From Eledone cirrhosa (taxonomy: Eukaryota), in assembly GCA_964016885.1 (NCBI GenBank), contig CAXHJY010001659.1, forward strand, positions 3,257 to 67,256: a stretch of 64,000 nt of DNA, in the 5' to 3' direction. How positions within the stretch are numbered: the stretch's first letter is position 1; every line of letters begins with the position of its first letter. Both the position numbers and the translations under genes were made by a program. The notes below the pieces were generated by a model, which saw only the letters and a list, made by a program, of their open reading frames with translations, did not search any database and had not been told where the DNA came from. Shown here piece by piece: positions 1,465 through 62,715 of the stretch.

Positions 1465-1745
1465 GTGTAAGACAGAACAAAAGGGAGACACAAAATAAAA
1501 ACCATATTCACTGAGGAGATCACAGAATGTGTGACGAAAGAGCTTTGACAATATATAAACAACCACCCGGTTATCGAACCAACCAATCAACCAACCAGCC
1601 AACCAACCGGAAATTTATAATAAATTGAAGTGAAAACCACAGGTGTGTCTCTTTTTGTTGGCAGCATGGCCCTCCCAAAGTATAGCAATATCTGTTTCAA
1701 CACACGTTTTCAGATAAGAAATCTTGCAAAGCAAATTCAAAAATG
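1465..1745 (+). mobile_element. Solo PLE pLTR fragment with HHR
   Basis: Colinear with 50940-51261 and with the reverse complement of 13983-14310. Ends at (TA)n. Confidence 0.75.
1506..1550 (+). ncRNA. Minimal type-I hammerhead ribozyme motif
   Basis: TCA-CTGAGGA-gaTCACA..TGTGAc-GAAA-gagc-TT-TGA. Confidence 0.6.
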
Positions 1746-2098
1746 ATGTATATATATATATATATATTTTCCCCTACTATATCTAGCGTAAAACTAATGA
1801 TATATTTTTTCATTGTACTGTTTCGTTTGCTTTGTATTTCTGTTTGTCTTTTGTATATACTGTATATATATATATATGGTCGGGATTTTACATCTCTCTC
1901 TATATATATATATTTTGTCTGGTGATCCTGTGAGTACACAGGTCAAACTACAAAGTAACAAGAATCTACTTCGGTATTAAGTACACATTCTCAGTCCGTC
2001 AACTTTATACGGACACACACACACACACACACACACACACACACACACACACACACACACACACACACACACACACACACACACACATATATATATAT

Positions 2099-3264
2099 AT
2101 ATAAGAAAGTAAGTCCATAGAATCATTTGATAAAATCTATACAGTATTTCTCCTCCCAATCAGCATAATCAACCACATAAAAAAAATCAATTAAACGAGG
2201 CTATAAGTTTAAAATGTACCTATGAAGAAACAATAGTAAATAAATGATAGCTATTTTATCCGCCATCCACGGCCACAGATTTACCTAGTATTTCTAATAG
2301 CACGTAGAAATTGACTAGACATATAGCTAACCATACACAATTAGGTACAAAATCAAAGTTAGAAGAAAAATGTAGATACACGTACCAAAATTATGTTTCT
2401 AACCCCGAAGGTTTCATTTGCTTTTTGGAAATATCCGATCATGGATAAATCAACGAGTTTCGAAATCACCAGGAAACAAACTCAATTGGACAAAGATTTT
2501 TCTTAAATGATCCCCGCCAGAAACAAATTCAAAATGGCTAATAATTGTCACATGGCCAGTGGTCAAGTCAGAAAGCTTGTGATTGGTGCCTGACGGCGAG
2601 TAGGCTGGCTGCTAGAAAGCGCAGCCGAATACTGCCTAAAGTTTTACTCAACCTTACGGGAGTATATAAAATATAGAGGTTTACATATACATAAACTAGA
2701 CAGAGCCATATATATATATATATATATATGTTTTTGGCAACCATTCACGGTGTGGCTCAATGACGAATTAATTAATTAAATATTCAACAATCAGAGCAAT
2801 ATATAAGAAAGTAAATCTATAGAATCATTTGATAAAATATATACAGTATTTCTCCTCCCAATCAGCATAATTAACCGCACAAAAAATCAATTAAACGAGG
2901 CTATAAGTTTAAAATGTACCTTTGAAGAAACAATAGATAAATAAATGATAGCTATTTTATCCGCCATCCACAGCCACAGAAGATTTACCTAGTATTTATA
3001 ATAGCCCGTAGAAATTGACTAGACATATAGCTAACCATACACAATTAGGTACAAAATCAAAGTTAGAAGAAAAAAATGTACATAAACATACCAAAATTAT
3101 GTTTCTACCCCCTGAGATTTCATTCGCTTTTTGGAAATATCCGATCATGGATAAATCAACGAGTTTCGAAATCATCAGGAAACAAACTCAATTGGACAAA
3201 GATTTTTCTTAAATGATCCCCGCCAGAAACGAATTCAAAATGGCTAAGAATTGTCACATGGCCA
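2099..3264. repeat. Partial tandem repeat, period ~700 bp
   Basis: 2099-2557 is repeated at 2801-3264. Bounded by (TA)n. Confidence 0.9.
3156..3180 (-). ncRNA. Ultra-minimal HHR-like motif with essentially no stem II; mutated twin at 2450-2474
   Basis: TC-CTGATGA-tttc-GAAA-ctc-GTT-GA on the minus strand. Confidence 0.35.
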
Positions 3265-4891
3265 TATATATATAACGAAGGAAGTGTGGTAAGGAACCAG
3301 GTGGACCATAACGCACCATAGTACTTGATACTTAGGTTAGTAGAGTGGGTATTAGGAAAAGAGTCAGGAGCCCGACGGCTGAGCTCCGGCCGTTTCGACG
3401 CTCAACCGTCGGACTCCTGACTCTTCCCCCCCCACACACACATATACACACATATATCTATATATATCTATATATATATATCTCTCTCTCTATATATATT
3501 TACATGGTAAGTATTGGATTCGTTTTTTCATGCAAGAATTTAGTTCCTCTGTTTGGCTCCTACTTCTGGGCAACATCGTTTCCATATCGTTATAACATCA
3601 AGATAAATGTGTTGGTCAGTTTAAGTGCACGTGCATGTGTGTGTGTATGCATGTATAGTTGCAAGTATATACGGGTGTAGGTGTATGTATATAGGAAATG
3701 GATATAAAATCGGGAAAGACATAGAGCGAGGGAGGCGGTGTAAGTGACGGATGAGAGAGAGAGATATATATAGATAGAGAGAGGGGGAGAGAAAGGGTTA
3801 GTAGAAGGGGTAAGAAAATAATTGATAGAGTGAGAGAGAGAGGTAATTTAAGTGGCAGGTAAGGGAGAAGAGAGAAAGAGAAAGACAGAGTGAGAGAGAG
3901 AGAGAGAGAGAGAGAGAGAGAGAGAGAGAGAGAGAGAGAGAGAGAGTGTGTGTGTGTGTAAGAGAGTGAGAGAAAGGGTAAGTATGAGGGGTAAGAAAAT
4001 AATTGATAGAGTGAGAGAGAGAGGTGGTTTAAGTGACAGGGAAGAGAGAAAGAGGCAGACAGCGATAAAGGACAAAAAAGGGATAAAGATATGAAAGAAA
4101 GCGAATTTGAAAACATTTCATATCTCATATAAGCTATATATGTAAGTGTATGTGTGTGCACGTGTTTGTGTGTATGCGTATGTCGTGTAGAAAGAGAAAG
4201 AAAGGAGAGAAAAGAGAGCTATGGACAGAGAGGGAAAAAGAAATGACAAAAATAAAGAATAAGGAGACTAGGAAAGGGGTGTCGTGTGAGGTTTATGTAA
4301 AAGGGGTTGTTCTAAGAAAGAAAGGAAGAAAGAAAGCAATTTGAAACGAAAGAATGAAGACGGAAAGAAGAAAAGAAGATACCGATTTTCAAATCATTTT
4401 ATTTCTGCAGTAACCCAAGGCTAGCCAGCATTGATTATATGACAAAACAATATAATAATTCAAATACACACACACACACACATATATATATATATATATA
4501 CACATATATATATATGTATATACATATATATATATGTATATATATGTATGTATATATACATATATGTATGTATATATATATATATATATATATATATATA
4601 TATATATATATATATATATATGCGCGTGTGTGTGTGTATGTATATATGTATGTGTATATATATATATATATTTCATTACACACACACATATATGTATATG
4701 TGTGTGTTTTTTCTTATGTATTCGTATATTTTCTTTTTATATATGTTTTTTATATTTGAAACCTTCAAATGGCAAATTGATAGCTTGATGGTAGAGACAC
4801 GATTATATCAATAATGACAGATTTTCGATTTACATATATAGACATTTCACTTCAATTACCTCTCTGAGAGCTAACATCATACTATACAAAG

Positions 4892-4980
4892 TGGGCGGGG
4901 AAGGGCCTTCTGACGTCAAGTCCTGTCCATCGATGATGCACTGGGTTCGCGGTTAAATCATTGTTTTACTGGCCCACTAA
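4892..4980. promoter_or_regulatory. Candidate cis-regulatory island
   Basis: GC box GGGCGGGG, full CRE TGACGTCA, TAAATCA and TTTTACTGGCC within 90 bp of non-repeat DNA. Motif evidence only. Confidence 0.25.
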
Positions 4981-60800: not shown

Positions 60801-60827
60801 TATATATATATATATATATATATATAT

Positions 60828-61100
60828 ATACAATGATATTAAGTAAATGGAAACTATTTTTCTAAAGTGTGTTTTATAAATGTTCACATAACCAATGAGA
60901 ATATACCTTTACGGTTCAAGTTATCCAAGGATAACTTGAACCGTTAGGGTATATTCTCCTTGGTTATGTCAAAATTTATAAAACACACTTCGTATTTTAT
61001 CTGATGATAGCGTACCAAAATTTGGTACCCTTGAAATATATATAATAGAATAAATATGGTTTTATAAATATAGTTCCCATTTATTTAATATCATTGTATA
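60828..61100. repeat. Fold-back palindrome centred at ~60927, with an HHR in one arm only
   Basis: 60865-60926 mirrors 60929-60990. 60828-60860 mirrors 61068-61100. Confidence 0.85.
60993..61052 (+). ncRNA. Type-I HHR
   Basis: TATTTTAT-CTGATGA-..GTACCAAA/TTTGGTAC..-GAAA-TATAT-ATA-ATAGAATA. Confidence 0.7.
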
Positions 61101-61469
61101 TTATACTCCAGAAAACCTGTAGAATGCTCTGAATCAGTAATAAATATTTATATTTGTTGAATATCCCTTCTGCTTATATATATATATATATATATATATA
61201 TATATATATATATATATATATATATATATATATATATATATATATATATATATAACGGCGATGAATTAGTTTTGCGAGGTCTTTGATATGAAATCGTGTG
61301 TCGAAACAAATATTGTTATATATATATATGGATGTTATTTATTCATTCTGACGACTGAAGACAGGCATAACATCAGCCTTCAAGAAACCACTGGTAAATG
61401 AAATAATTATCTTATTCATCGCCGTTATATATATATATATATATATATATATATATATATATATATATA

Positions 61470-62715
61470 ACGGCGATGAATTAGTTTTGCGAGGTTTTTG
61501 ATATGGAATCGTGTGTCGAAACAAATATTGTTATACTTGGGGAGGGTCATATTTGTGTAATACTATTGCCAGAATTAATAACATAACACACTCACTGGTT
61601 GGTTGGTTTTCGCTTCTGTGTCCTTTATATCGGTTAATTTAATTTATTCGCTCCTCAATGTTGCCATTGACTGACAACTGTCAAAAATACAGATACAATA
61701 TAGACACAAACACATATATATAGTCTATCAAAGTTCTTTCGTTGAACATCTGCAACATCGTTAGTGTTGCTATTATGTTTCCTCCCGTTGCATTGTATGT
61801 TTACGCCATCTTTATTTAGTCTGTTTATTTATTTATTTATTTGTTTATTTTTTTGTCTCCTCTGCGCATGTGTTTGCGTATAGTGTTTTGTTTGGGTGAC
61901 TGTGTATTGGTTAATGTATTCTATCTTAGTTTACTAGTGTGTGTTTATATGTGTTTGTTGTTATTGTGCTTGTGTATGTATTTATCTATTTATTTTTTTA
62001 ACAATCTATCTATTTATACTTCTCTTAGGTCAGTGTTGTTTGGGTGTTGTTGTTATTCCATTCATTTTTTTCTGTTTAAACTTGGCCTTCTAAGTTCTAT
62101 TTCGCTGGCCTCTCTGATTTGCCTATCTGCTGGGTCATTTCTATGTTTAGATATTATTCTAACTTCTATGTTGTTTATGTTACCGTTGTGTTGTTGTCTG
62201 GCATATTCCTATAGTACTGAACCGTTTCTTCGTCCTGTTAGTTCCCGCCAGTGTTGGTCTATCCTTTCACTTATGCTACGAGCTGTCTCGGCTATGTATG
62301 TTGTTGTCATGTTTCTGCAAGTACCCTCTGTACATCTTATGCTATAGACTACGCTTCTAGTTTTACAGTTTATCCGGGGGTTTACTCTACATATGATAAA
62401 TTTCCTATTAGTACAGTGGGATTTCTTAAAAGGGTAGGTTTTGCTGATCAGGGATTTTATGGTGGTTCCTGGCTTTTCTACCACCTTAACCTTTAAGTGG
62501 GTCTTTCTCAGTGCCTTTCTACACTGGTAAGCTAATTTCCCTCCAGCGGTAGTGTCCACAAACATGACACTCTGGTATCTCTGGTTGTCGTACCATGATG
62601 TGGCTTTCCCTATCTTATGTCTAGCCCTATCTAAGCTATTCCAAGATTTGCTCCTATATAATGGGCAAATTCCTTTCATGTCCAGTTCTATGAGGGTCTT
62701 ATACTTTTCCATGGC
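61470..62715 (-). mobile_element. Inverted copy of the same PLE 3' end (GIY-YIG + pLTR)
   Basis: 62037-62715 is the reverse complement of 63317-64000 (ORF 62209-62736, MEKYKTLIELD...YIAETARS). It continues into a pLTR with a degenerate HHR at ~61727-61768 and ends at (TA)n. Confidence 0.88.

Follow-up and report, generated by a model that had tools for sequence, protein, structure and literature searches.

Hammerhead ribozyme repeats in the octopod Eledone cirrhosa: truncated Penelope-like elements and probable retrozymes piled up in (TA)n

In animals, retrozymes without long terminal repeats (non-LTR retrozymes) are tandem units without open reading frames (ORFs) that carry a type-I hammerhead ribozyme (HHR) and are expressed as RNA circles in coral, mussel and axolotl (PMC7229834). 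In the same work, coral had over 6,000 motifs belonging to 16 families, mussel some 5,000 and axolotl as many as 120,000, and Penelope-like elements (PLEs) were proposed as retrozyme mobilizers. A 2026 preprint (10.64898/2026.07.22.740005) places retrozymes across vertebrates, with 57 families in Xenopus, 24 of which match known repeats, nearly all PLE ends; one of nine dimers cleaved, and its authors leave the mobilization mechanism open. PLEs carry minimal HHRs of their own, with the highest counts in Xenopus (~9,000) and coelacanth (~4,000; PMC4209133). Their insertions are marked by two-site internal initiation, a tail and extension of both strands (PMC11167929), as well as by inverted truncated arms and (TA)n targets (PMC8557442). 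Here we analyze a 64,000-nt stretch of the Eledone cirrhosa genome (the window: bases 3257-67256 of the small contig CAXHJY010001659.1 in the 3.0-Gb assembly GCA_964016885.1), a repeat nest with spacers of (TA)n, (CA)n and (TG)n in which HHR folds recur.

It is probable that the window is a (TA)n pile-up in which truncated 3' ends of autonomous PLEs lie among ORF-less retrozymes, with units of 420-760 nt that were likely copied in trans by the reverse transcriptase (RT) and GIY-YIG domains of PLEs. Such mobilization in trans is suggested by an insertion anatomy common to both. Whether this is also the densest and most diverse hammerhead community on record, with an internally primed RNA circle that PLE RT would roll via UAUA microhomology, we regard as evenly balanced. 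Retrozymes are a published class; what is added here is the host lineage, an unusually high density and genomic traces of internal, rolling PLE-type reverse transcription of ORF-less units. In the openly available papers searched, in their main texts, we found no cephalopod report of such repeats; supplements may list octopod counts. A recent repeat annotation of Octopus vulgaris has 893 recently active unclassified families of short interspersed elements, and the term 'ribozyme' is absent from its main text.

Folds were sought with a descriptor comprising the core CUGANGA or its U3-A8 variant, stem II, GAAA, stem III, NUH and stem I, at a score of at least 16. It permits stem II to begin with an open pair or after one additional base, stem III to be short and palindromic, and the core to be of the U3-A8 type; each relaxation was rerun with fresh controls. 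It replaced a strict earlier version that demanded pairing at 10.1-11.1 and a loop on stem III, and that gave three folds in the window and none in 12 shuffles. The window holds 13 intact type-I folds with perfect cores, a hit rate that is not matched in 40 local dinucleotide shuffles (mean 0.23, maximum 2), and the reversed window yields none. Rfam hammerhead models had no window match at gathering score, and there was no hammerhead among the 150 of 424 weak matches listed, where microsatellite hairpins dominate; minimal and long-insert variants are expected to score low in Rfam.

An initial annotation of the window had estimated about 20 folds and traced the type-I order at 17 sites, five of them on the minus strand. 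The estimate is fair, because three intact folds had gone unlisted (54723, 57011 and 61348) and homology to ribozymes from outside the window recovers about ten further decayed copies. As for the order itself, ten of the 17 sites pass the scan (7294, 8417, 9514, 14206, 16229, 28002, 50782, 51005, 57435 and 60993), whereas seven keep it with one defect: weak stems at 1506, a stem I mismatch at 8875, a stem I of only 1-2 bp at 17488 and 60698, U4C at 29750, an open first stem I pair at 48764 and a stem III wobble at 50408. The 17 sites fall into 13 families, and not all are unrelated: the element at 48786 and the 3178 family share 73% identity across 283 nt, contrary to the claim that the host repeats share no primary sequence. 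Closeness to (TA)n was confirmed: on the 3' side of a cleavage site the first (TA)5 is a median of 140 nt away, versus 846 nt at control positions.

Genome-wide density was measured in 59 blocks of 20 kb (1.18 Mb) taken at even steps along 14 large contigs, a sample that is not strictly random and excludes small scaffolds. The scan gave 139 matches, versus one in shuffled and six in reversed sequence; ten matches at one locus (L105) belong to a 32-bp minisatellite and were removed. The remaining 129 folds correspond to one per 9.1 kb, sparser than the one per ~3 kb first extrapolated, and to about 330,000 in the genome (bootstrap 240,000-430,000), with 20 of the 59 blocks devoid of any fold. 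A whole-genome count of one sub-pattern, made without a stem test, found 169,346 occurrences versus 10,710 for the pattern read backward. The sampled folds form about 39 sequence clusters, of which 14 were seen once, and two further singletons look false; fold number correlates with (TA)n content (Spearman 0.63). Set against the retrozyme counts of coral, mussel and axolotl, some 330,000 folds in 3.0 Gb is a rough comparison, as descriptors differ.

The folds belong to two classes of host. At least seven window families represent the ends of autonomous PLEs cut short on the 5' side; their longer copies carry an upstream ORF for GIY-YIG or RT. Named by their ribozyme cores, those recognized by upstream RT/GIY-YIG remains include 1511/14245/51010 (family A), 7298, 17491, 61001, 60710 and 61764. 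A GIY-YIG ORF lies 210-250 nt upstream of the HHR repeat in longer copies of family A, 1.0-1.3 kb upstream in the 7298 family (loci L319, L316 and L067) and 1.3 kb upstream in the 61001 family, with a decayed RT beyond (RT and GIY-YIG both decayed in L359 and L225); the 17491/22268, 60710 and 61764 HHRs are located on PLE remains inside the window.

Six other window families consist of circularly permuted, ORF-less units of 420-760 nt with one type-I HHR each. Unit lengths are 629-632 nt in the 630-nt family (cores 54723 and 22889), ~539 nt in the 539-nt family (50787 and 50484), 751-764 nt in the 760-nt family (9518), 417-444 nt in the 431-nt family (28008), 701-706 nt in the 706-nt family (3178 and 2472) and 458 nt in the 458-nt family (8491 and 8949), whose class call is weak because only three copies were seen; a further unit of 616 nt has half a core. 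Past the 5' end of the unit, long copies continue into the 3' end of the same unit. Terminal redundancy of 751-764 nt is present in four of 29 loci of the 760-nt family, none of which has an upstream ORF; it spans 417-444 nt in six loci of the 431-nt family, and in the 706-nt family a 701-nt redundancy recurs in sampled locus L105. Two complete ribozymes occur in five of 20 insertions of the 630-nt family, and tandem pairs in the 539- and 431-nt families. No ATG-initiated ORF exceeds 93 amino acids in any of ten ORF-less units, and their GC content is 0.34-0.43. Circular folding z-scores range from -2.5 to -6.4 in all eight ORF-less units tested, compared with -0.8 to 0.0 in all five PLE ends. 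One type-I HHR per ORF-less tandem unit, low GC, self-pairing, co-occurring PLEs and many families are all shared with metazoan retrozymes. The unit lengths exceed the 150-450 nt first described and lie inside the 51-972 nt given in the preprint.

The claimed community of non-autonomous ribozyme-bearing RNAs in mostly ORF-less hosts is partly supported. The six ORF-less families are abundant, yet seven of the 17 listed sites are truncated autonomous PLEs with a PLE ORF upstream in the family; six are ORF-less and four were assigned to neither class (16229, 29750, 48764 and 57435). The non-autonomous reading holds for about a third to half of the families, and truncated PLEs make up another third. 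Of 127 sampled folds, 45 are linked to PLEs, through nine families (four of them on the strength of a single copy), and 38 lie in seven tandem families without ORFs (three of them on the strength of one pair or a single copy). The window features are as follows.

1458..1748, plus strand: family A truncated PLE 3' end; decayed minimal HHR, core 1511
2103..3263, minus strand: ORF-less 706-nt unit, ~1.6 tandem copies; HHR cores 3178 and 2472, one defect each
7116..7468, no single strand: head-to-head truncated PLE 3' ends; intact U3-A8 HHR 7294-7331 (plus), mutated HHR 7221 (minus)
8343..8990, minus strand: ORF-less 458-nt unit, 1.4 copies; HHR cores 8491 (intact) and 8949
9081..9819, plus strand: ORF-less 760-nt unit; HHR 9512-9639 with long stem II insert
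9878..10067, no single strand: hairpin-like truncated 3' ends of a further HHR family; only the ribozyme 3' half present
13984..14310, minus strand: family A PLE 3' end; intact minimal HHR, core 14245
14613..14814, minus strand: second copy of the 7298 family; core 14780
16127..16307, minus strand: short truncated element; smallest HHR, 4-nt palindromic stem III, core 16260; assigned to neither class
17149..22374, plus strand: decayed full-length PLE; pseudo-LTRs 17149-17600 and 21921-22374, RT and GIY-YIG pieces 18310-20754 (GIY-YIG match E 0.002), HHR cores 17491 and 22268 with weak stem I
22389..23214, plus strand: older 1.3-unit copy of the ORF-less 630-nt family; core 22889
27597..28262, plus strand: ORF-less 431-nt unit, 1.5 copies; intact HHR, core 28008
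29750..29913, plus strand: truncated element; U4C core change at 29756; assigned to neither class
29936..30765, plus strand: ORF-less 616-nt unit, 1.3 copies; CUGAUGA at 30088 and 30704, GAAA half not traceable
48764..49150, plus strand: long-stem-II U3-A8 HHR at 48786; relative of the 706-nt family; assigned to neither class
49329..49510, minus strand: truncated element; HHR with core change at 49501; assigned to neither class
50233..50923, no single strand: head-to-head pair of the ORF-less 539-nt family; cores 50484 (minus) and 50787 (plus, intact)
50945..51261, plus strand: family A PLE 3' end; intact minimal HHR, core 51010
54407..55051, plus strand: a single complete unit of the ORF-less 630-nt family, which is young; intact HHR 54717-54798, 7-bp stem III; initially unlisted
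56895..57376, no single strand: head-to-head pair; U3-A8 cores 57011 (minus, passes the scan) and 57252 (plus, decayed); assigned to neither class
57422..57566, plus strand: short truncated element; intact HHR, core 57441; assigned to neither class
59600..60800, plus strand: truncated PLE; GIY-YIG remains near 59900-60300, U3-A8 HHR 60710 with weak stem I
60831..61174, no single strand: head-to-head truncated PLE 3' ends; intact HHR, core 61001 (plus)
61329..61425, plus strand: short truncated element, initially unlisted; intact HHR, core 61348; assigned to neither class
61470..64000, no single strand: young autonomous PLE, head-to-head copies; decayed minimal HHR 61764 (minus)

In both classes the 3' end of an insertion is fixed and internal: it lies 50-260 nt beyond the cleavage site, where short TA microhomology is present, and the target is (TA)n. 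For the 630-nt family, 20 insertions were mapped and all share one 3'-terminal base, 259 nt past the cleavage site; their 5' ends are scattered over the unit, one of the 20 near the cleavage site, and copies are 0.3 to ~4 units long. An alternating TA run of at least 4 nt adjoins ten of the 13 mapped 3' ends with known read-through, and a run of three the other three, against a background of 5-9% of positions (anchors were hand-chosen). Two alternative 3' ends, 65-115 nt apart, are found in PLE families 61001 and 7298 and in ORF-less families 50787 (539 nt) and 28008 (431 nt), and so are head-to-head arms, with 21 inverted pairs among 82 matches in the 50787 family and five among 34 in the 28008 family. 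This combination of two-site initiation 3' of the ribozyme, tail, inverted arms and (TA)n target resembles that of the PLE Poseidon PAc (PMC11167929) and of PLE clades, in which non-autonomous head-to-tail partners also occur (Chlamys MRC1; PMC8557442). PAc tails are 30-40 nt long, compared with 65-115 nt here, and PAc started without homology in vitro, whereas start sites here adjoin short TA microhomology. For retrozymes, we found no description of fixed 3' ends at TA microhomology, tails or head-to-head arms in the available parts of the literature.

Tandem arrays carry a second trace. Among 60 units from 31 insertions of the 630-nt family, only four arrays of which have three or more units, eight variants are present in all array units that cover the site (five of them private to the array), 30 in a single unit and none in some units only. 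Divergence is 0.30% within arrays and 0.50% between them. The pattern is consistent with one template of unit length having been copied repeatedly before decay set in. Of 594 arms in nine other families, 12 end within 3 nt of the cleavage site and 450 extend beyond it. A 5'-end pile-up at the cleavage site was therefore discarded as a trace of cleavage in vivo; since arms cross the site without one, the template was continuous there, either uncleaved or re-ligated. Taken together, the array-private variants and the missing pile-up fit rolling reverse transcription of a putative RNA circle.

The ribozymes themselves are conserved. In 372 homologues of 11 families, gathered by BLAST rather than by structure, the count of polymorphic columns is three in the core (of 121), 41 in loop II (of 247) and 68 downstream (of 517), so that cores are kept across family copies; core position 7 varies freely in several families. 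The stems covary, with nine compensatory, 19 one-sided consistent and 14 breaking pair variants present in at least three copies. Stem III is perfectly palindromic in 77 of 126 sampled folds, which points to dimers. A U3-A8 core is present in 28 of the 126 and a U-U at 10.1-11.1 in 48 (about ten of each are minisatellite matches), and a C-A at 10.1-11.1 in 16. The U3-A8 core and palindromic stem III have been described in PLE ribozymes (PMC4209133), and U-U at 10.1-11.1 is a natural hammerhead variant (PMC3088659). Further likenesses to the PLE ribozymes of PMC4209133 are a palindromic stem III of 1-2 bp predicted to need a dimer, an extra nucleotide before stem II in several PLE families, and mostly solitary and truncated copies. 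Unlike in that work, G10.1-C11.1 is in the minority here, U-U and C-A are common, and stem II often has inserts of 30-110 nt.

We propose the following cycle. A locus with two ribozymes would be transcribed, and the ribozymes, mostly acting as dimers via the palindromic stem III, would release a monomer that is then ligated into an RNA circle. A nick in (TA)n would be made by a PLE protein, and the resulting end could prime synthesis at a UAUA-like position that is fixed within the unit, 50-260 nt 3' of the cleavage site; here fixed ends and microhomology are observed, and priming is what they suggest. Reverse transcription would proceed back over the ribozyme and round the unit. The resulting copies are those seen, of 0.3 to ~4 units with a fixed 3' end and scattered 5' ends. 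Where both target ends prime, at two start sites, head-to-head arms and a tail would arise, an anatomy that is observed here and a mechanism that we take by analogy from the published PLE assay.

The genome contains young PLEs whose ORFs are intact, which counts in favor of this account. Several points weigh against it. Transcription, cleavage and the RNA circle of ORF-less units are predicted from genomic copies, and self-cleavage of the folds from DNA sequence; many folds have U-U or C-A at 10.1-11.1, and for several isolated motifs the minimum-energy fold differs from the hammerhead. The PLE tested in vitro did not need cleavage and primed without homology (PMC11167929), and eight of nine predicted Xenopus retrozyme dimers were left uncleaved (10.64898/2026.07.22.740005). 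The 630- and 760-nt families have one 3' end and no inverted arms, and may therefore use another PLE clade or enzyme. A comparison of ten ORF-less units with 12 PLE 3' ends, a set that is far from complete, gave no match; a derivation from PLE pseudo-LTRs is put forward in the 2026 preprint. Furthermore, 44 of the 127 sampled folds could be assigned to neither class, and two of 14 random 450-nt controls (median z about -1.2) fold with z below -3.6.

How else could the window be explained? All folds might be debris of autonomous PLEs, with tandem units as pseudo-LTR-only by-products or local DNA duplications and no RNA replicons involved. The PLE ORF upstream in at least seven window families and 45 of 127 sampled folds, the PLE ends among Xenopus retrozyme families, and truncation so extreme that rare full-length parents are easily overlooked all suit this idea. 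Yet long copies of the 630-nt (31 insertions), 539-nt (28 loci) and 760-nt (29 loci) families wrap into themselves and none enters an ORF, dispersed dimers to tetramers have one common 3' end, and the ORF-less units are more self-paired than PLE ends, so we consider it quite improbable. Still less credible, and in our view very improbable, is that a non-PLE enzyme such as a long interspersed element with TA preference mobilized the ORF-less units, or that they spread as DNA satellites. The lack of a sequence link to any PLE end compared, the two families without inverted arms and tail, and an intact L1/Tx1-like ORF in the window are what speaks for it; the internal fixed starts, two-site tails and head-to-head arms of the 539- and 431-nt families match those of PLEs in the same genome, poly(A) and a tRNA head are missing, and copies are dispersed and 5'-truncated rather than in long arrays.

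It is unlikely, too, that the ORF-less units are retrozymes whose template was an uncleaved linear multimer or arose by template jumps, the ribozyme being weak or serving another step and no circle intervening. The missing 5' pile-up at the cleavage site suits uncleaved RNA equally well, and published PLE ribozymes are poor at cleavage, with unprocessed RNA serving as main substrate in vitro. Read-through copying, however, can do no more than shorten arrays, yet some with three to four units are young and still present; variants occur in all units or in one but never in some (in only four arrays of at least three units), and ribozyme cores are conserved. The reading we prefer remains that of PLE ends and ORF-less retrozymes, the latter likely copied in trans.

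Other elements of the window complete the picture. A decayed PLE occupies 17.1-22.4 kb and a pair of L1/Tx1-like ORFs 41.2-46.6 kb, and the right end holds a young PLE. The protein of the young PLE has its best named relative in Octopus vulgaris (69% identity; next matches 48%); open frames reach 1,218 amino acids elsewhere in the genome, where a search gave 32,640 candidates. In its ORF a long insert rich in Asn precedes the RT on the N-terminal side, and two copies lie head to head (L360:1638-3200 and L158:1-2202). The decayed PLE is strongly C-rich on the plus strand at 17800-22000 (GC skew to -0.75), while nearby PLEs are AT-rich instead. The L1/Tx1-like element (41226-46628, plus strand) has an open ORF1 of 643 amino acids and an ORF2 of 1,150 amino acids encoding endonuclease and RT; a truncated copy in opposite orientation, in pieces at 51532-52689 (minus), is 85% identical. 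A ~480-nt repeat occurs four times beside microsatellites with 95-97% identity (10870-11357, 53461-53885, 57803-58272 and 58433-58920), and the descriptor scan gave no hammerhead in these copies. A tRNA head was looked for in the window and none was found.

Some minor families deserve mention. Copies similar to 9878..10067 lie near 14829-14959, 28313-28455, 40842-40978 and 49905-50097, and remnants of a PLE ORF lie 1.3 kb upstream of a complete copy in L127. The 16260 element has a decayed relative at 13601, and the HHR core of the 29756 family is intact in sampled locus L073. The unit at 29936-30765 (574-655 nt) is circularly permuted and self-paired; it may have lost its ribozyme or use another fold. 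The 57441 family is the most frequent by homology. A widely spaced cluster of its copies has no PLE ORF, and the idea that the family starts at its ribozyme was dropped, since some copies extend upstream by a further 140 nt or more. At 393 genome places this family shows one and the same exact junction between head-to-head copies (for example L362:1-240 and L363:198-661, the latter locus with two palindromic units in tandem), either as a fold-back hot spot or as a palindromic mini-element spreading in one piece. Of the sampled families, the one that most resembles a retrozyme is absent from the window; it is ORF-less, has units of 310-311 nt and forms arrays of 7-14 units with an inverted arm (L041 and L081; also C1 near 1,239,857-1,244,284).

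The mobilizer of animal retrozymes and the role of ribozyme and circle are still argued from co-occurrence. With young ORF-less families and young intact PLEs in one genome, the mobilizer question becomes testable with named RNAs and proteins. At some 330,000 folds, predicted self-cleaving motifs would make up a major unannotated part of this genome. If a circle is indeed primed by nicked (TA)n and rolled by PLE RT, this would settle the mobilizer of retrozymes and explain part of the microsatellite-rich landscape of octopod genomes.

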